DNA of 64,000 bases from Syntrophomonadaceae bacterium (GTDB lineage: Bacteria > Bacillota > Syntrophomonadia > Syntrophomonadales > DTU052): NCBI GenBank assembly GCA_012729505.1, contig JAAYDA010000046.1, positions 15,384 to 79,383 on the forward strand, read 5' to 3'. The position numbers were made by a program, and so were the translations under genes. This document shows positions 1 to 60,492 of the stretch, piece by piece. A model generated the notes under the pieces. That model did no database searches and was not told the DNA's origin. It was given only the letters and a program-made list of their open reading frames with translations. Positions within the stretch are counted from its first letter, which is position 1. The number at the start of each line of letters is the position of its first letter.

Positions 1-8
1 CTTCGCTT

Positions 9-1073
9 TCAGTAATGTTTGATTATTCCACGTTTCACTTTCATGGGGTACCAGTTTTGATGACCTGACCTTCCTGCTGAATAACAATACCCGGAGCTAT
101 TAGACACCATAGCGGGGATGTTTGCCCGTATTATGTTTAAGAGCTCTTCGGCCCGGTGTTGGTAGGTGTGTCTGGCATATACCTCTGCTTGACCTGCCCG
201 GGCAATTTTCATGCGTTCTTCCGGCCGGGGGAGATAATGTTTTAACAGCTCCTCAGTTTCTTCGGGTGATTTGGACCATACCAGGTGCCGGTGATTGACA
301 AAAAATCTTTCTATGGCCGGGGTCCATTGAGTAAGATGGAAGGCACCGCATCCCAGGGCCTCAAAGGTTCTCATACTCATCATGGTAGGCGATGTATTAA
401 CCGAATGGAGTCCCAGCACAATCCGAGCCGACGAATAGGCGGTTCGCATTTCTTCATAGCTTAAGTGGCCGCCATAGAATTGCGGATCTATAGAGAAAGG
501 ATTTTTCCGGTCAAGCCACCAATCCAGTCCATATATTTTCAGGTCGGCTCCCTGGGCCATGAGGGGCTTCAATATTATCTCCATGCCTTTAAAGCGGGCA
601 GAAAACTGTCCGTAATTATTGCCGATAAAGATACAATCATGACTAAGACCAGGGTCTGGGTGAACCTGATGGTGAAATGATGGTGTACAGGCAAACATCA
701 TCAGATGGGCCTTGATTCCCCGGGCTTGATACTTGGGGATGCACTCAGCCGCGGTAGTAAATACCAGTTTTGAATTTGATGCCATTGGCAGTGATAAAGA
801 ATCAAAATAGAGAGGATCCTCACTGCCCCAAAAAACATGAGGGATCCTCCGGCGGCGAAGATCCGAAAATACATGTTTGCCAAACCTGCCCCAGCCCCCT
901 TGGGAAAAGACCAGGTCAGGGTGAAAAGAATCCAGGCATTGACCCAGATAATCAGGAGACTGGCTCAGGGCGGCACCCAGGTCGATTATTTGCACCTCTT
1001 TGCCCAGTTCCAGGAGAGTTCGGGCCAGGCCGTGGGTAATCATAGGATTAGTATCAGTAAATAAAAATTTCAA
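9..1073 (-). CDS. CgeB-family spore-maturation glycosyltransferase-like protein (paralog 1)
   Basis: ORF track 9..1148. It is a clear paralog of the 1356..2327 ORF (FTTAAECIPKY/FTTAAECVPGY, SSARIVLGLH/SSARIVLGVN, MRTFEALGCG/MRPYEALGCG), with motifs I recognise from CgeB-type proteins. Start moved to TTG 1073, which aligns with the paralog N-terminus and has AAGGAGG 10 nt upstream. Confidence 0.75.
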   Translation of the reverse strand: MKFLFTDTNPMITHGLARTLLELGKEVQIIDLGAALSQSPDYLGQCLDSFHPDLVFSQGGWGRFGKHVFSDLRRRRIPHVFWGSEDPLYFDSLSLPMASNSKLVFTTAAECIPKYQARGIKAHLMMFACTPSFHHQVHPDPGLSHDCIFIGNNYGQFSARFKGMEIILKPLMAQGADLKIYGLDWWLDRKNPFSIDPQFYGGHLSYEEMRTAYSSARIVLGLHSVNTSPTMMSMRTFEALGCGAFHLTQWTPAIERFFVNHRHLVWSKSPEETEELLKHYLPRPEERMKIARAGQAEVYARHTYQHRAEELLNIIRANIPAMVSNSSGYCYSAGRSGHQNWYPMKVKRGIIKHY

Positions 1074-1355
1074 ATCCCAACTGCCTCCTTTATCTCCGGC
1101 AACAGGGTTTGCCGGCCGAAGACAAACAAATTCCAGCGGGAGCCGCATCTCCCTGTTTGGCTCGGAACTATCTTACTCCCTTTTGGGAGAACAGCAGATT
1201 TCTTTGGCAATATTATCATATGGAGGAATAACCCGGATGGTTCCAAAGTTAGAAGTGAGAAATGAAAAGTTGGATGCCGCAGGTACGGGTGAATTACCCG
1301 TGCCCTGGCATCCATTCCTGTTTCCGCTTCCCAATTGAATTGAGGGGAGAGTTTG

Positions 1356-2327
1356 CTAAAGGCGGCGAAAGGCCTGCAATATCTGTTGAGCCCGCAGCCG
1401 GTAGTTATGTTTTTCGTAGACTTCCTTCTGGGCCACCCTCGCTCTTTCGCGACGCTCATTATCACTCATAGCCAGAATTGTGTTTACCGCTGCCAAGGCT
1501 TGTTCCGTATTGCGCACCTGCCAGATCAAATCTCCAAAAATGTTTTCCTGGGCCTGAGTATAGTGGGCAAGATAAAGGCCTCCTCCGCATCCCAAGGCTT
1601 CATAAGGCCGCATGGAAGTCTGAGTGCTGGAGGTATCGTCACAATTAACCCCCAGGACTATGCGGGCCGAGCTGTAAGCAGCGGGCAGATCTTCATAAGG
1701 AAGCAGGCCATAATATACCCAGGGATAAGATACCAGGTTAACTTCAGCACCGGGATCCATCCAAAAGTGACCCCATATTTTAATAGAGCATCCTTTTTCC
1801 ACCAAGGGCATTATGAACCAGTTAACCTCCTGATAACGGAATGCATAATTACTGGCCACCAGAACCAGATCACAGACATGATCTTCCCGAGGGCCGGTGT
1901 AATAATGGAAGTTCGGATTACAGCCAAAGAGTAAAACCTCTGACCCTTTACCCATAGCCTCATAGCCGGGGACACATTCGGCAGCAGTGGTAAAAATATA
2001 GTCAACTGAGGGTGCAAAGCACATAGAGGTATAATCAGTGGAGACCGGATCCTCAATGGCCCAATATAAATGAGGTATATTAAGGCTGCGGATGGTATGG
2101 CAAACTGTGGGCACATCAAAACCCGGATAACCCTCCGTAAATATAAAATCAGGCTTAAATTCGCCAACCGCCGCCAACAAACGTTTTTTCTGCTCTCTTA
2201 CGGATAATCCGCCCCAGAGCCGCTCTTTCTCACCCTGGATCACTCTGGTCCGACACCCGATCTGGCCAAAGCCCTCCGCTAATCCGTATTTGATTAATGG
2301 AGCTTCATTAGTAAACAGTACTCGCAA
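1356..2327 (-). CDS. CgeB-family spore-maturation glycosyltransferase-like protein (paralog 2)
   Basis: 323-aa ORF with a TTG start preceded by AAGGAG 10 nt upstream. Same family motifs as the 9..1073 ORF. Confidence 0.8.
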   Translation of the reverse strand: MRVLFTNEAPLIKYGLAEGFGQIGCRTRVIQGEKERLWGGLSVREQKKRLLAAVGEFKPDFIFTEGYPGFDVPTVCHTIRSLNIPHLYWAIEDPVSTDYTSMCFAPSVDYIFTTAAECVPGYEAMGKGSEVLLFGCNPNFHYYTGPREDHVCDLVLVASNYAFRYQEVNWFIMPLVEKGCSIKIWGHFWMDPGAEVNLVSYPWVYYGLLPYEDLPAAYSSARIVLGVNCDDTSSTQTSMRPYEALGCGGGLYLAHYTQAQENIFGDLIWQVRNTEQALAAVNTILAMSDNERRERARVAQKEVYEKHNYRLRAQQILQAFRRL

Positions 2328-2392
2328 CCGTAAGTCACTCCTTTGACATCAATATATATCCTGACCTGACAATGGGGCAGCAAGGCCAATAA

Positions 2393-2524
2393 TCCGATGA
2401 CTAATCTGCCCTAAGGCCCCCGCCTCTATAGGCGGCGGGTGCCCAAGGGCAGTTAAGTTCCTGGATCTGTGCGACTAAGCTTCAGATGGAGTCAAAACTC
2501 CACCTGAATCAAGTCTTACTTTAT
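2393..2524 (+). ncRNA. Conserved ~131-nt two-hairpin element, copy 1 (candidate cis-regulatory leader RNA or dispersed repeat)
   Basis: Near-identical to 17508..17639 and 60362..60492 (about 6-8 differences by manual alignment). Lies in the divergent intergenic region, 137 nt upstream of the GT2 gene start. Confidence 0.6.
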
Positions 2525-2660
2525 CAGCTGCATATTAATCTATTCTGTTGAGGGTCAGGCGGTGAAAAGGGTGCCCAGAGACGTTTCGGGGTCTGTTTGC
2601 ATATAAAGTAGTAACGATAATTACATTTTTGGAGGTAACGGAACAATTATATCTGCGCGA

Positions 2661-3347
2661 GTGATGATAGGGTGCCCGGTGCGGGAGCGGGGCTGGATTC
2701 TGCCCCGCTATTTAAAGTGTCTGACTGATTTAGACTATCCGGCCGGCCAGATTGAATATGCTTTCGTGGTAAATGACAGTCAGGATGATACATTAGAGAT
2801 TCTTCAGGAGTTTGCCCGTAATGCTCAGTCACCGGTGGAAATCCGTCAGGTCAACCTAAAAAGCCGCACTTCTCCGGTTCGGGGGGCACACAGCATTGGC
2901 AATTTAGTGGTGTTACGAAACATTCTGTTAGATATGTTTTTAATAAGTACGGCGACTCACCTGTTTTCCCTGGATAGCGACATTTTGGCGGAACCAGACA
3001 GCCTGGCCCGATTAATAGACCTTGATCTTCCGGTGGTATCTATGCTGGTTCCTAACGACAGGCATTTGGAAACGAAAGGTTACTACAATATAGCTAATCT
3101 TCAAGGAGACCAGTATTTACCGATCATGAAATTCCCTCGTGACCAGGTAATTCCTGTTGACTGTACCGGCGCCGGGTATCTGATCAGGCGAGAGGTAATT
3201 GAAGCCGTGGGAGTCAGATATTATCCTCATCGCCAGGGTGAGGATGCAGGCTTTTGCAGGGTGGCCCGGGCCAGGGGGGTAGGTCTCTGGTGTCATACCG
3301 GTATAAGAGCCGCTCATATCATGGTCCGGGAAGGCAAATGTCAATAA
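2661..3347 (+). CDS. Family-2 (GT-A fold) glycosyltransferase-like protein
   Basis: 228-aa ORF with a GT2-like N-terminal pattern (YAFVVNDSQDDT ... SLDSD). Start uncertain: GTG 2661, and the nearest GGAGG (2631) is 25 nt away. Confidence 0.6.
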   Translation: MMIGCPVRERGWILPRYLKCLTDLDYPAGQIEYAFVVNDSQDDTLEILQEFARNAQSPVEIRQVNLKSRTSPVRGAHSIGNLVVLRNILLDMFLISTATHLFSLDSDILAEPDSLARLIDLDLPVVSMLVPNDRHLETKGYYNIANLQGDQYLPIMKFPRDQVIPVDCTGAGYLIRREVIEAVGVRYYPHRQGEDAGFCRVARARGVGLWCHTGIRAAHIMVREGKCQ

Positions 3348-3415
3348 TAATAGCACTAGTACTAAAAGGATTGATAAAAACCCGCCATACTAAAAGAAAA
3401 GGATGCAGCTTAAGC

Positions 3416-3443
3416 ACACTTCGATCCTGTATTTCATAATATA
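3416..3443 (+). promoter_or_regulatory. Possible sigma-K-type promoter (AC-N17-CATAATATA)
   Basis: AC at 3416-3417, a 17-nt spacer, then CATAATATA at 3435-3443. This matches the AC-N16/17-CATAnnnTA consensus and lies about 80 nt upstream of the 3525 start. Confidence 0.3.
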
Positions 3444-3524
3444 TCCTAGAAATTCACCTGCATAGGGGTTCCCTCCCGCCAACAAAGGAGGTTGCGGATT
3501 TCAAAGCAAAGGAGGGAAGAAGAA

Positions 3525-4091
3525 ATGGGTTTGATTTGTGAATACCCTTGTAGACTTGATCTTTTTGCCGAGGTTGTAAAAGCAAAAAACTGCCAGCGCC
3601 AGGAAAAGGTTTTAGATGAGATAATTTGTATACCCAAAGAAGATGTTGGGGGTAGAATCACTGAGATAGACGATATTAAAGTACAGTTAATATCTGCCGA
3701 AGAAACTTTTGTGGGTAACCACCGGGTAAAAGTAACCCTGGCATTTAATGTGGTTCTGATTGTTATAGTCGGAGATGATCCGGGTTGTTTCGAAATCGTT
3801 ACCCTGGAAGGATTCGTTTTTAATAAGAATATCCCCTTGGATCAATTCAACCCGCCCATAAGTCCTCAGGAATTCAAGGAAGAGGTTGAAAGATCACAGA
3901 TAATCTTGAAGAACTGGAGTTTTGAAGGTGAAATATTGGGAAATTGCGAGGATCCCAACAGCCCGTGTTTTGTTGCGACACCCATAGCCGGAACCTGCAT
4001 CTTGCTCAGAGTCTTTGTTGATATAATCGACAAATTGACCAAGTTCCATGACATAGTGGTTTTTGCCGAGCTTGATCCCGACGATTGCTAG
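3525..4091 (+). CDS. Hypothetical cysteine-rich protein (possible spore coat/surface protein)
   Basis: ORF track 3492..4091. ATG 3525 is preceded by GGAGGGAAGAAGAA. The protein has 9 Cys and no family I can name. A terminator follows at 4098. Confidence 0.6.
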   Translation: MGLICEYPCRLDLFAEVVKAKNCQRQEKVLDEIICIPKEDVGGRITEIDDIKVQLISAEETFVGNHRVKVTLAFNVVLIVIVGDDPGCFEIVTLEGFVFNKNIPLDQFNPPISPQEFKEEVERSQIILKNWSFEGEILGNCEDPNSPCFVATPIAGTCILLRVFVDIIDKLTKFHDIVVFAELDPDDC

Positions 4092-4097
4092 TCCCCT

Positions 4098-4125
4098 ATG
4101 CCTGGCTTTTGCCGGGCATTTGTTT
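4098..4125 (+). terminator. Rho-independent terminator
   Basis: ATGCCTGGC-tttt-GCCGGGCAT stem-loop followed by TTGTTT. Confidence 0.6.
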
Positions 4126-4175
4126 AAGTAAAAAGGGGGGGGCTTGGCTGAGTCTCCCCTGTCAGCCTGGGAGGA

Positions 4176-4394
4176 ATGAGTCAGTTGGATTCAGGGCAGA
4201 ATGACCGTAACCAAATCAGAGAACGTATCAGAGAACTGATCAATACCCAAAGGGAGTTCAACGAGCAGGTGCAGCAATTCCGTCAAGAGATCGGAGACCA
4301 GGAAATGAAGCGGATCCTGGAAGAAGTCTCCAGACAAGGGCAGGCGAATATTCAAAAGCTTTCCCGGTTACTAGCAGTAAAATGCATTGTTTGA
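4176..4394 (+). CDS. Small charged coiled-coil hypothetical protein
   Basis: 72-aa ORF with protein-like, Q/E/R-rich composition. The SD (GGGAGG) abuts the ATG, so the start and the gene itself are uncertain. Confidence 0.35.
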   Translation: MSQLDSGQNDRNQIRERIRELINTQREFNEQVQQFRQEIGDQEMKRILEEVSRQGQANIQKLSRLLAVKCIV

Positions 4395-17318: not shown

Positions 17319-17452
17319 GCTTTGGGAAGAAGCCCTCAAAATATTACCGGGAGTCCGGGAGCAAGTGGAATTAACCCCGTGTTCGGGAAGCCAAATCTTG
17401 CCTCCCGCCGGTCCTGTTTTTCTGATCATTGACAATGATATGAAAAGAGGCC

Positions 17453-17481
17453 TTGGGAGACTAGGAAGATAATTGTATAAT
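17453..17481 (+). promoter_or_regulatory. SigA-type promoter (TTGGGA-17-TATAAT) driving the glmU leader
   Basis: TTGGGA at 17453-17458, a 17-nt spacer, TATAAT at 17476-17481. The predicted TSS is about 20 nt before the conserved element. Confidence 0.55.
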
Positions 17482-17507
17482 ATGTTGTAGACTATAAGAA
17501 AATTTTA

Positions 17508-17639
17508 TCCGATGACTAATCTGCCCTAAGACCTCCGCCTCTATTGGCGGCGGGCGCCTAAGGGCAGTTAAGTCCCTGGATCCGTGCGACTAAGATTCAG
17601 ATGGAGACAAATCTCCACCTGAATCAAGTCTTACTTTAT
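17508..17639 (+). ncRNA. Conserved ~131-nt two-hairpin element, copy 2 (candidate glmU leader / attenuator)
   Basis: Lies between the promoter and the glmU TTG (27 nt downstream). Hairpin I: ATCC..GACT..CTGCCCT..CCGCC-loop-GGCGG..AGGGCAG..AGTC..GGAT. Hairpin II: GACTAAGATTCAGATGGAG / CTCCACCTGAATCAAGTC, then TTACTTTATT. Confidence 0.65.
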
Positions 17640-17666: not shown

Positions 17667-19043
17667 TTGTCGAAGATAACCGGGGTGGTTCTGGCGGCCG
17701 GAAAGGGTGTGCGTATGCGTTCGGCCCTGGCCAAAGTACTGCACCCCGTTGCCGGAATCCCTATGGTGAGCCACGTGATTCGAGAGGCCCGGGAGGCCGG
17801 CGCAGATCAGCTGGTTCTGGTGGTTGGACATGACCGGGATCAGGTTATGGAAAAGCTAGCGGGACCGGGAATACAGTTTGTAGTTCAGGAGGAGCAGCTG
17901 GGTACAGGTCATGCCCTTCTTCAAGCCGAGCCTGTTGTTAGCAAATCGGATTTGATTATGGTTTTATGTGGAGATACTCCGCTTCTGCAGGCAGATTCCC
18001 TGCGCCGTCTCATTGATTTCCATAAGACACAAAAGTCAGCTGCCACAGTATTGACGGCTCGTATGAGTGATCCTTCCGGCTATGGACGGATAATCCGCGA
18101 TGAGGCCGGGGAATTAATCCGCATTGTTGAAGAAAAGGACGCTTCCCAGGACGAAAAGAAGATTGATGAGATCAACTCAGGGATATATTGTTTTGACTAT
18201 CAGGTGTTTTCCGCTCTCAAACAACTTACTACGAACAATGTCCAGGGTGAGTATTACCTTACCGACACCCTGGTTGAACTGATCAGCAAGGGAAGGCGGG
18301 TTTTAGCCTTGCCGACCGCTAATGAGGAAGACATTTACGGCATAAATGACCGCTCCCAGCTGGCCTTCGCAGAAAAGAAGCTGCGTCAGCGCAAATGCCA
18401 GGAGCTTATGGCTGCGGGAGTCACCATTATTGATCCTGAAACAACTTATGTGCAAAGTCGGGTGACGATTGGACAAGATACTATTATTGAGCCTTTCACC
18501 ATGATCGAAGGGAATTCGGTTATTGGCGAGAGGTGTGCAATAGGTCCCGGGTCCAGGATTGTCAACTCAATAATTGGCGCAGGAACCAAGGTTGACAGCT
18601 CCCGGGTTGTTGAAAGTGAAGTCGGAGACCGGTGTGATATAGGGCCTTATGCTTATTTGCGGCCGGGAACTATTTTAAAGCAGGGGGTCAAAATAGGGGA
18701 TTTCGTAGAAATCAAAAAATCGCTGATTGGTGCCGGAAGCAAGATTCCTCATCTTAGTTATGTTGGTGATGCGACCCTGGGGCAAAATGTAAATGTCGGG
18801 GCCGGAACCATAACCTGCAACTACGATGGAAAAAATAAGTATCCAACCTTAATTGAAGACGGTGCGTTCATCGGGAGCAATACTAATCTGGTGGCGCCGG
18901 TTACGATCGGTGAGAAAGCAGTCACCGGTGCAGGATCAACTATTACCAAAGATGTACCCCCGTTTTCATTAGGAGTGGAAAGAGCTCCACAAAAAGTAAT
19001 TGATAACTGGCAGGAACGAGAGAAAATGGATAATAATGAATGA
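17667..19043 (+). CDS. glmU: Bifunctional UDP-N-acetylglucosamine pyrophosphorylase / GlcN-1-P acetyltransferase
   Basis: 458 aa with LAAGKGVRM at the N-terminus and left-handed beta-helix hexapeptide repeats at the C-terminus. TTG start. Confidence 0.95.
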   Translation: MSKITGVVLAAGKGVRMRSALAKVLHPVAGIPMVSHVIREAREAGADQLVLVVGHDRDQVMEKLAGPGIQFVVQEEQLGTGHALLQAEPVVSKSDLIMVLCGDTPLLQADSLRRLIDFHKTQKSAATVLTARMSDPSGYGRIIRDEAGELIRIVEEKDASQDEKKIDEINSGIYCFDYQVFSALKQLTTNNVQGEYYLTDTLVELISKGRRVLALPTANEEDIYGINDRSQLAFAEKKLRQRKCQELMAAGVTIIDPETTYVQSRVTIGQDTIIEPFTMIEGNSVIGERCAIGPGSRIVNSIIGAGTKVDSSRVVESEVGDRCDIGPYAYLRPGTILKQGVKIGDFVEIKKSLIGAGSKIPHLSYVGDATLGQNVNVGAGTITCNYDGKNKYPTLIEDGAFIGSNTNLVAPVTIGEKAVTGAGSTITKDVPPFSLGVERAPQKVIDNWQEREKMDNNE

Positions 19044-31733: not shown

Positions 31734-32500
31734 TGGAAGATCAAGGAATCAAAGCACTGATGGAGACCATGAACAAATTGTTGTCACCGGAGGGCTGTCC
31801 CTGGGACCGGGAACAGACTCATACTTCATTGCGAAGATATCTGGTGGAGGAAACCTACGAAGTGCTGGCCGCCATTGATGATGGCGACATGAATGAGCTG
31901 CGTGAAGAATTGGGAGACCTCCTGCTTCAGATAGTGTTTCATTCCGCTTTGGCAGAAAGAGAGGGTGCTTTTAATCTGAGTGATGTTGCTAATATAGTTA
32001 ACGAAAAGATGATAAATCGTCATCCTCATGTTTTCGGGCATTTAGAGATTAATTCCAGTGATGAAGTCATGCAGCACTGGGAAGGATTTAAGCGGGATGA
32101 AGGCAAGAAATCAATACTGGAAGGCATTCCCCGGCATCTTCCTGCTCTTCTGAGGGCGTACAAGCTACAGGAAAAGGCGGCCCGGGTTGGTTTTGACTGG
32201 CCCCAGGTTCAGGGGGCCCTGAAAAAACTCAACGAAGAAACTGCCGAGTTTATAGCTGCGTCCCAGGACGGCAGCCCGGAGATGATCGAAGAAGAAATGG
32301 GAGATATTCTCTTCACCATAGTCAACATAGCCCGGATGTCGGGAATTGAGCCGGAACAGGCTTTACAGAACTCCAATGCCAAATTCACCCGCAGATTTAA
32401 TCATATTGAAAGCCGCCTGAACGACGAAGGCCAGCTTCTGGAGGAAGCCGGTCTGGAAAAGCTGGACAAACTCTGGGATGAAGCAAAAGCTAATGAGTGA
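31733..32500 (+). CDS. mazG: MazG nucleoside triphosphate pyrophosphohydrolase
   Basis: 255 aa with tandem MazG EExxE motifs (LVEETYEV, EELGDLLLQ, EEMGDILF). Confidence 0.9.
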   Translation: MEDQGIKALMETMNKLLSPEGCPWDREQTHTSLRRYLVEETYEVLAAIDDGDMNELREELGDLLLQIVFHSALAEREGAFNLSDVANIVNEKMINRHPHVFGHLEINSSDEVMQHWEGFKRDEGKKSILEGIPRHLPALLRAYKLQEKAARVGFDWPQVQGALKKLNEETAEFIAASQDGSPEMIEEEMGDILFTIVNIARMSGIEPEQALQNSNAKFTRRFNHIESRLNDEGQLLEEAGLEKLDKLWDEAKANE

Positions 32501-32670
32501 GGCGGGAGACGGGAGGGGTAAGGAGTGAGGCGAGAGGAGAAACGGGAGACGAGAGGCGAGAGGCAGGCGGGAGCCAAATCTTCCTAAAAGATTTGTGCTT
32601 CCCGCTTGGTTCGACGTGGAGCGTCGAACTTCCTATGGTGAAACAGGGGGACGAGAAATCCGGCTCCTGC
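32496..32670 (+). repeat. Purine-rich GAGGCGGGAG-type dispersed element (R1) with internal hairpins
   Basis: An approximately 80-nt G/A tract starts on the mazG stop codon (GTGAGGCGGGAGACGGGAGGGGTAAGGAGTGAGG...). It is followed by the hairpins GGCGGGAGCCAAATCTT/AAGATTTGTGCTTCCCGC and GTTCGACG/CGTCGAAC. The core is shared with 53414 and 62871. Confidence 0.6.
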
Positions 32671-52624: not shown

Positions 52625-53445
52625 TGGACCAAATAATTTTGGACGGATTGAAATTCTGGGGATGCCATGGAATAACCCCGGAAGAGAAGAATAAGCCCCA
52701 GCCTTTTGAAGTCCACCTGGTTCTGTATCGGGATTTGAGCCGGGCCGGGCAGACTGATTCCATAGATGATACCGTTGATTATTCTCAGGTTTTTGCCGAT
52801 ATCCGCCATATTGTTGAAAAAGAGAGTTTCAACCTGTTGGAAAAAATGGCGGACAGAATCGCTGCTCATGTTTTGGGCTTGAATAAAGTAATTACGGCCC
52901 GGGTAACCGTGAAGAAGCTTAAGCCTCCTATTGGGGGGGAATATCGATCTTTCGGGGTGTCCATTGAAAGAAAAAGAGTTGCCGGTACTGCCTACTTAGG
53001 GTTGGGAACTAATTTGGGCGACCGGGAAAAAAATCTGACTGAAGCAGCAGGATACCTGGAAAAACTCACCTCTACCCGAGTATTAAAATATTCCTCCCGG
53101 TATTATACTTCTCCTTGGGGAAAAACCGACCAACCCGAATTTCTTAACCAAGCGGCAGCAGTCGAAACCTACTTAACCCCTCGGGAGTTACTTCAAGAAA
53201 TGCTGGACATTGAGACCCTGATGGGACGGAAGCGCCTGGAGAAATGGGAGCCTCGGATTATCGATCTCGATCTGCTCCTTTATGGCCGCCAAACAATTCA
53301 GGAACCTGATCTCACCATTCCTCATCCCTATCTGACTCAGCGGGAATTTGTCATAAGACCCCTTCTCGAAATCGAGCCTGATCTTCAATTACCAGACGGA
53401 CGGTTGTTAAAAAGTGAGGCGGGAGGAGTAAGGAGTGAGCGGTAA
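52624..53445 (+). CDS. folB-folK: Bifunctional dihydroneopterin aldolase / HPPK (FolB-FolK fusion)
   Basis: The N-terminal approximately 118 aa are FolB-like (LKFWGCHG...). The C-terminal part is FolK-like (AYLGLGTNLGD ... RIIDLDLL ... IPHP). ATG 52624 overlaps the folP stop (TGATG). Confidence 0.9.
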   Translation: MDQIILDGLKFWGCHGITPEEKNKPQPFEVHLVLYRDLSRAGQTDSIDDTVDYSQVFADIRHIVEKESFNLLEKMADRIAAHVLGLNKVITARVTVKKLKPPIGGEYRSFGVSIERKRVAGTAYLGLGTNLGDREKNLTEAAGYLEKLTSTRVLKYSSRYYTSPWGKTDQPEFLNQAAAVETYLTPRELLQEMLDIETLMGRKRLEKWEPRIIDLDLLLYGRQTIQEPDLTIPHPYLTQREFVIRPLLEIEPDLQLPDGRLLKSEAGGVRSER

Positions 53446-53580
53446 GGCGATAGGAGTGAGGGGTGAGGAGGGAGGAGCAAGTGGAATAACCCCGTGCCTC
53501 CGGCATCAATGCTGGCTTTTTTAATCTGCGTCCAACGTTCCCTCGTTCCCCTCACACTTTACGCCTCTCGCCTTACGCTC
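53414..53580. repeat. Purine-rich element (R3) forming a long imperfect inverted repeat around a terminator-like hairpin
   Basis: The left arm GAGCGGTAAGGCGATAGGAGTGAGGGGTGAGG (from 53437) pairs with the right arm CCTCGTTCCCCTCACACTTTACGCCTCTCGCCTTACGCTC (53541-53580). The centre holds CCGGCAT-ca-ATGCTGG followed by CTTTTTT. The element's 5' end encodes the last codons and the stop of folK. Confidence 0.6.
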
Positions 53581-53793
53581 CATCGCTTTGAAACAATATT
53601 TTGACAAATCTTAATGATTTGTTGTGTTATGGTGATTTCCGTGCTAAAATATACGCGAAAGTATGGTGCGGAAAAACTAGATACTAGATTTTCTCCCGCC
53701 GAACTCCTTATTATCCGCTTGTACCATTGGGGGCCAAGACGGAAATCCTGAGTAGCGGCTGGCGGTAGTCGTTGCTCTCAAGGGGGGCTTCTC

Positions 53794-60349: not shown

Positions 60350-60361
60350 AGAGTCTTTTTA

Positions 60362-60492
60362 TCCGATGACTAATCTGCCCTAAGACCCCCGCCTCATAGG
60401 CGGCGGGTGCCCAAGGGCAGTTAAGTCCCTGGATCCGTGCGACTAAGATTCAGATGGATTCAAAACTCCACCTGAATCAAGTCTTACTTTAT
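60362..60492 (+). ncRNA. Conserved ~131-nt two-hairpin element, copy 3 (upstream of bioY)
   Basis: Starts 13 nt after the nadC stop and ends 17-26 nt before the bioY start. Near-identical to copies 1 and 2. Confidence 0.6.

Follow-up and report, generated by a model that had tools for sequence, protein, structure and literature searches.

A mobile 131-nt repeat of a Syntrophomonadaceae bacterium and its probable kinship with the bcr1-type repeats of Bacillus

The DNA analysed here is a stretch of 64,000 nt of contig JAAYDA010000046.1 from a Syntrophomonadaceae bacterium (assembly GCA_012729505.1; the whole stretch is hereafter called the window). It holds three copies of a short structured element, the first of which, copy 1, lies upstream of a glycosyltransferase (GT) gene. 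A sequence-only reading of copy 1 had regarded the element as an RNA-level structure kept by selection on a + strand transcript, and had overlooked its mobility. The element is mobile, as seen directly from its presence in the window and its absence from the orthologous sites of a close relative. We place at roughly 0.8 the probability that it is a gene-less mobile repeat of the bcr1 type, sharing a superfamily with the ~150-nt, TTTAT-flanked repeats known from the Bacillus cereus group. For genome annotation the element is best labelled a mobile repeat and not a regulator.

Copies, boundaries and empty orthologous sites

A repeat search of the window returned three direct copies, all on the + strand, at 2392-2524, 17507-17639 and 60360-60492, and the boundaries of the element were drawn from a three-way alignment of these copies. 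The edges of similarity are abrupt, beginning with ..TTTAT followed by CCGATGACTAATC and ceasing after ..AAGTCTTACTTTAT. A profile built from the copies detected no additional ones in the 64 kb. The parts of copy 1 and the positions of its sister copies are as follows, the hairpins being those of the minimum free energy fold:

2389-2393, + strand: pentamer ATAAT, which flanks copy 1 directly on its 5' side and is a TTTAT-like target; doubles as the end of the -10 hexamer in a promoter-like site
2394-2524, + strand: copy 1, element proper (CCGATG...CTTACTTTAT), 131 nt
2392-2466, + strand: hairpin I, a G+C-rich imperfect palindrome that includes, in the pairing at its foot, the final 2 nt of the flanking pentamer
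2469-2519, + strand: hairpin II, the conserved 3' module GTGCGACTAAG-stem-loop-CAAGTCTTAC
2520-2524, + strand: terminal TTTAT carried by the element, with CTTAC before it
17509-17639, + strand: copy 2, in the predicted 5' untranslated region (UTR) of glmU; target pentamer TTTAT at 17504-17508
60363-60492, + strand: copy 3, 130 nt; target pentamer TTTAT at 60358-60362

A multicopy structured element of 131 nt is confirmed at the place where it had been described, with position 2393 being the last base of the flanking pentamer. Its distance from the GT gene required only a small correction, from 137 to 136 nt when measured to the GTG at 2661, and public gene calls place that start at 2679.

The evidence for mobility comes from GCA_012511475.1, a metagenome-assembled genome (MAG) of Syntrophomonadaceae, which was located via searches for GlmU and GT homologues and whose GlmU and GT are 85% and 83% identical, respectively, to the window proteins. 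Both orthologous intergenic sites, that of copy 1 as well as that of copy 2, are without the element in this MAG. At the copy 1 site (L049) the relative reads GGCCGATTAT directly followed by CCGTTGCATATT, where the window has GGCCAATAAT, the 131 nt and then CAGCTGCATATT; set out from the upstream region of the GT gene, ..GGGCAGTAAGGCCGATTAT adjoins CCGTTGCATATTAAT in the relative and ..GGGCAGCAAGGCCAATAAT is separated by 131 nt from CAGCTGCATATTAAT in the window. The net length difference is exactly 131 nt with the terminal TTTAT included. Copy 1 is bordered by ATAAT on the left and TTTAT on the right and, because the left pentamer differs from the terminal TTTAT of the element, there is no target duplication at this site. 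Likewise, the upstream region of glmU in the relative (L042) reads ..ATTTAT directly followed by TTTTACAAAAGGTATTCAAGGAAGTG, against ..TTTTAT, 131 nt and TAAAAAGTATCCAAGGAAGTG in the window. Assemblies of the same species have the element at both sites.

The element is not confined to this species. An exact 24-mer of its 5' end was found on eight contigs of one MAG, Bacillota bacterium OH_SFB_195 (eight copies), with unrelated flanks and a G+C content of 38-42% compared with 48% for the window, and a 22-mer was found at no fewer than 30 bioreactor metagenome loci, with up to six copies on one contig and a single strand used throughout. Synteny with the window is seen at none of these loci. The copies are ~95% identical, loops included, in at least two unrelated Bacillota genomes, and such near-identity in hosts of differing G+C points to recent horizontal spread. 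A scan of viral contigs and a blastn search of phages returned no element. The family also includes a head-to-tail dimer with one common TTTAT (L038) and single-hairpin deletion forms (L029, L035).

The junctions were compared over 34 copies. The left pentamer is TTTAT in most of them (TTTAT, ATAAT, TTGAT and TTCAT are among those seen) and the right pentamer is TTTAT in 33; deviations from TTTAT occur at 12 of 170 positions on the left and 1 of 170 on the right (p = 0.003), and the sequence outside the pentamer is random. No terminal inverted repeats were found, the best match being an internal 6-mer equalled in 155 of 2000 shuffles. In 31 of 36 copies (p = 1e-5) the + strand of the element coincides with the locally G-rich strand, the leading and gene-sense one, a bias that is confounded with gene orientation; the + strand of the window has positive GC skew throughout.

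These junctions bear on a rival reading, in line with the older view of bcr1 as flanked by 5-bp direct repeats, in which the repeat is a classical MITE (a miniature transposable element with inverted repeats) moved by a DDE transposase with a 5-bp TTTAT target duplication. Most copies do have TTTAT at both ends, the empty-site comparison at copy 2 comes out 5 nt short of a full element, and 5-bp direct repeats have been described for bcr1 (PMC3184786, PMC6199540). However, the element has no terminal inverted repeats, copy 1 pairs ATAAT on the left with TTTAT on the right at a net insertion of exactly 131 nt that includes TTTAT, variability is significantly higher in the left pentamer than in the right one, and a strand bias of this strength is unexpected for double-strand cut-and-paste. 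A MITE of this kind is therefore unlikely, albeit it fares better than the other alternatives considered below.

Relation to repeats of Bacillus and Clostridium

In blastn searches the 3' half of the element matched at least five units on a Clostridium beijerinckii plasmid, which form a divergent subfamily, begin with TTTAT followed by CCGAT.. and end in ..AAGTTTCACTTTAT or ..ACTTGAT. The only coding sequence of the right size that is labelled 'transposase' on this plasmid was considered in the search for a parent element and rejected, being a DDE fragment unrelated to the repeat. From the Clostridium units the similarity leads onward to a ~150-nt unit of Bacillus sp. N5-665, of which one genome holds at least 40 copies and which is found also on plasmids of B. 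mycoides, B. cereus, B. thuringiensis, B. tropicus and B. wiedmannii. The Bacillus unit reads TTTAT followed by CCCGC...AAAGTTTCACTTTAT, folds as two independent stem-loops and occurs as dimers with a common pentamer (L054, L059). The record with at least 40 bcr1-like copies, NZ_CP093325.1 (L053), is entered as 'plasmid p1' of Bacillus sp. N5-665, with 25 annotated features; at 5.5 Mb it is chromosome-sized.

The kinship was recovered in both directions by nhmmer. A profile of the window family matched all Bacillus units over nearly their full length, with E-values down to 5e-7 in 12.7 kb, and the reciprocal Bacillus profile returned exactly the three window copies in 64 kb. Common motifs are TAAGAC, CCNGAT, ACTAA and AAGTYTYAC-TTTAT. 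The two repeats differ in that hairpin I of the element is shorter and has its outer helix flipped around the common TAAGAC (CTGCCC/GGGCAG as opposed to GGGCAG/CTGCCC), and similarity at the blastn level is confined to the 3' module.

The published bcr1 repeat is ~155 bp long with 5-bp direct repeats and two stem-loops, is transcribed, shows compensatory changes and has a strain-variable distribution (PMC3184786). TTTAT has been associated with bcr mobility (PMC6542083, PMC6199540), and bcr1-3 are transcribed and often lie within UTRs or intercistronic regions (PMC3446304). The element resembles bcr1 in being small (131 versus ~150-155 nt), intergenic, multicopy and TTTAT-bounded (with ATAAT on the left at copy 1), in its two independent stem-loops with compensatory changes, in its UTR or intercistronic placement, in its presence or absence between relatives and in its tandem copies with a common pentamer. 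A further difference lies in the hosts: in the literature bcr1 is a repeat peculiar to the B. cereus group, whereas the element occurs in Syntrophomonadaceae, in the Bacillota MAG OH_SFB_195 and on the C. beijerinckii plasmid. The kinship would thus extend a repeat family deemed group-specific to distant anaerobic Bacillota.

Fold, gene context and the case for a regulatory RNA

The two-hairpin fold of copy 1 is very stable, with -60.2 kcal/mol compared with -34.6 ± 3.5 for shuffled sequences (z = -7.3), and the minus strand folds equally well (z = -7.3). Pairs were scored on the consensus two-hairpin structure in an alignment of 33 non-redundant copies, in which 97.2% of the cells are paired. 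Compensatory double changes occur at three pairs, all in hairpin II, a number reached in only 8 of 500 shuffles, and the substitution rate is 0.023 per site in paired columns and 0.034 in unpaired ones. Hairpin II covaries also across subfamilies (Clostridium, Bacillus), with compensatory changes at 5 of 14 pairs and several 5:5 swaps of the types GC/UA, UA/AU and UA/GC; the 3' arm of hairpin I was misplaced when window and Bacillus units were aligned with MAFFT/RNAalifold, and covariation of hairpin I between subfamilies was followed by eye only. The hairpins of the element are under selection. To this extent the earlier claim that the structure is kept by selection stands, on compensatory changes both within the family and across subfamilies; its second half, a signal from one strand, does not.

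The + strand argument had been built on stem substitutions that turn a G-C pair into G-U. The substitutions themselves are all present: the AGTC to AGTT change of copy 1 giving G:U (position 2459), the CCCCC to CCTCC change of copy 2, TCTATA, TCTATT and TCATA in the hairpin I loop, GGATCC turned into GGATCT in the linker (2468) and the uncompensated A-to-C at the hairpin II stem base of copy 1 (2480), and the difference between copies 1 and 3, put at about six positions, amounts to five substitutions and one indel. However, one-sided stem transitions in the 33 copies give G:U on the + strand 23 times and A:C on the + strand, equivalent to G:U on the minus strand, 21 times, next to 21 other mismatches; without the misaligned copy L035 the ratio is 17 to 16. 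Because the G:U cases are equalled by about as many A:C cases, the helices are mildly constrained without preference for the + strand.

The AGTT change is moreover not fixed at its locus. In 5669 bp, a second assembly of the same species (L046) departs from the window at four positions only, namely 2416, 2459, 2468 and 2480; each of them falls inside copy 1, and at each L046 carries the family consensus. Since an assembly of the same locus has the consensus state at all four positions, the signature of copy 1 is a strain- or assembly-level polymorphism and not a selected state. Under uniform mutation the clustering of the four differences in copy 1 would have a chance of ~3e-7, and two other contigs stop inside the element (L047 and L048 begin at window positions 2498 and 2497). 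This suggests either gene conversion between copies or repeat collapse or breakage in assembly. The element breaks metagenome assemblies, with contigs ending inside it, and its copies may be homogenised, both of which matter for the reading of single-nucleotide polymorphisms in such repeats.

The genes and promoter-like sites next to copies 1 and 2 are:

1356-2327, - strand: CgeB/YkvP-like glycosyltransferase gene (Glyco_trans_1_2 + DUF3880), divergent
2366-2393, + strand: sigma-70-like promoter match CTGACA-16-AATAAT (10/12 matches, a consensus match only), abutting the left junction of copy 1
2661-3347, + strand: Anp1/GT2-like glycosyltransferase gene downstream of copy 1 (start at 2679 in public gene calls)
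17453-17481, + strand: sigma-70-like promoter match TTGGGA-17-TATAAT, 27 nt upstream of copy 2
17667-19043, + strand: glmU, downstream of copy 2

The -10 sequence TTGTATAAT upstream of the copy 2 insertion point is invariant in three taxa, and copy 2 is probably situated in the glmU leader. Copies 1 and 2 probably form part of + strand transcripts, given that each has a promoter-like site at its insertion point or upstream of it. No intrinsic terminator was found in or after the window copies. Copy 3 lies between nadC and bioY, 13 nt past the nadC stop and 16 nt ahead of the bioY start.

Between copy 1 and the GT gene, two CATA-type motifs are conserved in both species (window 2525-2660 and L049), namely GCATATTAAT just 3' of the insertion point and GTTTGCATATAAAGTAG ~85 nt further on; we take them to resemble the -10 boxes of mother-cell sporulation promoters. 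Were the distal motif the true GT promoter, the GT mRNA would not include copy 1.

Most copies occupy intergenic DNA and point in the direction of a gene whose start is 13-40 nt downstream, and a co-oriented gene often also ends a few tens of nt upstream; a few copies are antisense to their neighbours (L035, L001, L008). The genes downstream of ten copies at other loci encode a glucosaminidase-domain protein, a periplasmic binding protein, an enoyl-CoA hydratase, a class I tRNA synthetase, an AAA ATPase, a DAHP synthase, a DltD-like protein, a PAS protein and two ABC permeases. They are functionally unrelated, and the amino-sugar/glycan theme that had been proposed from the genes of the window does not carry over to them; the tie to spore-glycan and amino-sugar genes is coincidental.

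With these results the proposal of a cis-acting structured leader or regulatory RNA, selected on the + transcript and controlling amino-sugar/glycan genes, can be weighed. It would account for the very stable fold, the compensatory changes of hairpin II, the co-orientation of most copies with a gene 13-40 nt downstream and the probable transcription of copies 1 and 2 from nearby promoter-like sites, and bcr-type repeats are known to be transcribed (PMC3446304, PMC3184786). Conversely, there is no strand asymmetry (G:U 23 versus A:C 21) and the minus strand folds equally; the orthologous genes of the close relative are without the element; the downstream genes are functionally unrelated; the copies are ~95% identical even in their loops, unlike paralogous riboswitches; some copies are antisense; and the G-U change of copy 1 is not fixed at its locus. 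Neither did Rfam 15, with its families of riboswitches, leaders and IS605-associated RNA motifs, give a match in the 64-kb window at gathering thresholds, and permissive scans (E up to 10) of the window and the Bacillus and Clostridium units gave only sub-threshold matches at chance level, namely three animal miRNA-precursor families and the Twister-sister ribozyme (13.3 bits versus a gathering threshold of 34, E = 6.4). We consider a dedicated cis-acting RNA improbable, and a riboswitch is rejected on account of the empty orthologous sites together with the unrelated downstream genes. Effects on mRNA are plausible as a secondary matter, and an RNA effect of copies in 5' UTRs would probably be incidental.

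Possible routes of mobilisation and variant forms

Members of the IS200/IS605 family have no inverted termini, generate no duplications, are bound through one hairpin per end and integrate 3' of a tetra- or pentanucleotide (PMC7290912). In ISGst2, TTTAT is both the target and the transposon-associated motif (TAM), and the right-end motif is TTCAC (bioRxiv 10.1101/2023.03.14.532601); Group A IStrons insert after TTGAT, ATTAT or TTTAT (PMC4227781). The element bears a likeness to the palindrome-associated transposable elements (PATEs), which are non-autonomous IS200/IS605 derivatives (e.g. those of ISGst1-5 in Geobacillus): it is without coding capacity, terminal inverted repeats and, at copy 1, target duplication; it has subterminal hairpins at both ends on one strand and a strand-biased orientation; it inserts 3' of the pentamer TTTAT, the ISGst2 target; and its TTCAC/CTTAC near the right end resembles the ISGst2 right-end motif. 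It differs from the PATEs in that its right end closes with the target motif TTTAT after the TTCAC-like pentamer, and in that no cognate tnpA/tnpB or full-length parent was found at the loci examined, nor was a pairing between guide and cleavage site identified.

From these likenesses a mechanism can be proposed in which the hairpins, together with the adjacent single-stranded motifs ACTAA and AAGTYTYAC-TTTAT, would be the structure that is recognised by a trans-acting enzyme with folded single-stranded DNA as its substrate. This enzyme would most plausibly be a Y1 HUH transposase of the IS200/IS605 type, pasting the element 3' of TTTAT on the lagging-strand template. TTTAT-like sites are common in A+T-rich promoter and leader DNA, so that copies would land in 5' UTRs or between cistrons and be co-transcribed, and the effect of their stable hairpins on mRNA would be a by-product. 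Such a mobilisation step is held tentatively, at somewhat less than even odds, and a duplication-generating mechanism or an uncharacterised recombinase is possible instead. More doubtful than the step itself is a wider proposal, in which a Bacillota-wide bcr1-type superfamily (Bacilli, Clostridia, Syntrophomonadaceae) would consist of PATE-like passengers of TTTAT-targeting, ISGst2-like transposases, the hairpins would serve as left- and right-end recognition structures and a right-end motif, fused to a copy of the target sequence, would make up the TTCAC/CTTAC-TTTAT tail. If true, this would explain the movement of bcr1.

The reading of the element as a bcr1-type repeat moved in this manner has several points to answer. 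Searching the window and the other loci (426 kb) by tblastn with an IS200 TnpA query, verified as Y1_Tnp, yielded no transposase. Likewise, no transposase is annotated under the Bacillus or Clostridium matches, and blastn with the right end only revealed no transposase-linked copies in plasmids. The 3' pentamer of the element is identical to its target motif; characterised IS200/IS605 elements have distinct right-end and target motifs. Selection on the transcript would be just as likely to lead to orientation bias and compensatory changes. At copy 2 the net difference from the empty site is 126 nt, not 131, within T/A runs, and a 5-bp duplication is compatible with it. Finally, the ~150-nt Bacillus repeat was equated with bcr1 by published description, not by sequence, and this identity is inferred.

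Insertion targeted to a pentamer, termini that are not inverted and an orientation biased to one strand lead to a testable hypothesis, namely that bcr1-type repeats move by single-strand transposition of the IS200/IS605 type. The integration of bcr1 was described as 'yet to be investigated' in reviews of 2018-2019 (PMC6199540), and we found no published mechanism. The element is also comparable to the Correia/nemis, ERIC, RUP and BOX families, which are likewise short structured intergenic repeats that are co-transcribed with adjacent genes and can alter mRNA processing or stability as a side effect; in contrast to the element, those families have terminal inverted repeats, TA or other duplications and ties to DDE transposases.

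Two further alternatives also start from hairpin-based repeats. The first is an element akin to repetitive extragenic palindromic (REP) sequences and their doublets (REPINs), kept by a single-copy domesticated REP-associated tyrosine transposase (RAYT, TnpA-REP) and inherited vertically. The extragenic, palindromic, high-copy character of the repeat, its tandem arrangements and its hairpin-based architecture without inverted termini would agree with this. However, the element has two different hairpins in direct order instead of an inverted REP doublet, its insertion is precisely targeted to a pentamer, no Y1 protein was found by tblastn in the 426 kb, and ~95% identity across hosts of 39-42% versus 48% G+C points to horizontal spread, all of which makes a REPIN very unlikely. 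Least credible is a PATE encoding a guide (omega) RNA that a TnpB/TldR-type protein would use in trans, with the sequence just 3' of TTTAT as guide: TTTAT is known as a TAM of TnpB, omega RNAs are frequent in PATEs, and the element is similar in size to an omega-RNA scaffold and lies directly upstream of genes, but Rfam gave no match even at permissive thresholds, tnpB was not seen near any copy and a terminal motif equal to the TAM would make the donor site self-targeting.

A second repeat family is present in the window, consisting of purine-rich tracts (GAGGCGGGAGACGGGAGGGGTAAGGAGTGAGG...) located after genes at 32491-32570, 53408-53600 and 17330-17381. At 53408-53600 the purine tract is followed by GCAAGTGGAATAACCCCGTGCC and a complementary pyrimidine-rich arm, giving a long imperfect inverted repeat. 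The sequence GCAAGTGGAATTAACCCCGTG is found again at 17361-17381, where it belongs to ~90 nt upstream of the glmU promoter that the relative (L042) lacks.

Among the copies of the 131-nt element outside the window, some are extended or interrupted. At L020 (10629-11005) and L030 (1124-1500), 184 nt of unrelated sequence separate a full copy from a subsequent hairpin II-only unit with the same TTACTTTAT end, an arrangement that could be a composite capable of moving the intervening DNA. Half of the sampled OH_SFB_195 copies contain a 53-57-nt insert in hairpin II flanked by GGAG (L001 3330-3523, L002 6680-6869, L008 545-736, L007 707-897), which was not found outside these elements, and in L007 the entire top of hairpin II is inverted with the insert included. 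Similarly, one locus seen in two samples is intact in L014 (1376-1512) and interrupted after the CTCC of hairpin II in L032 (~1-4204, minus strand), where the interrupting insertion carries a 584-aa open reading frame for a DDE_Tnp_1 transposase.

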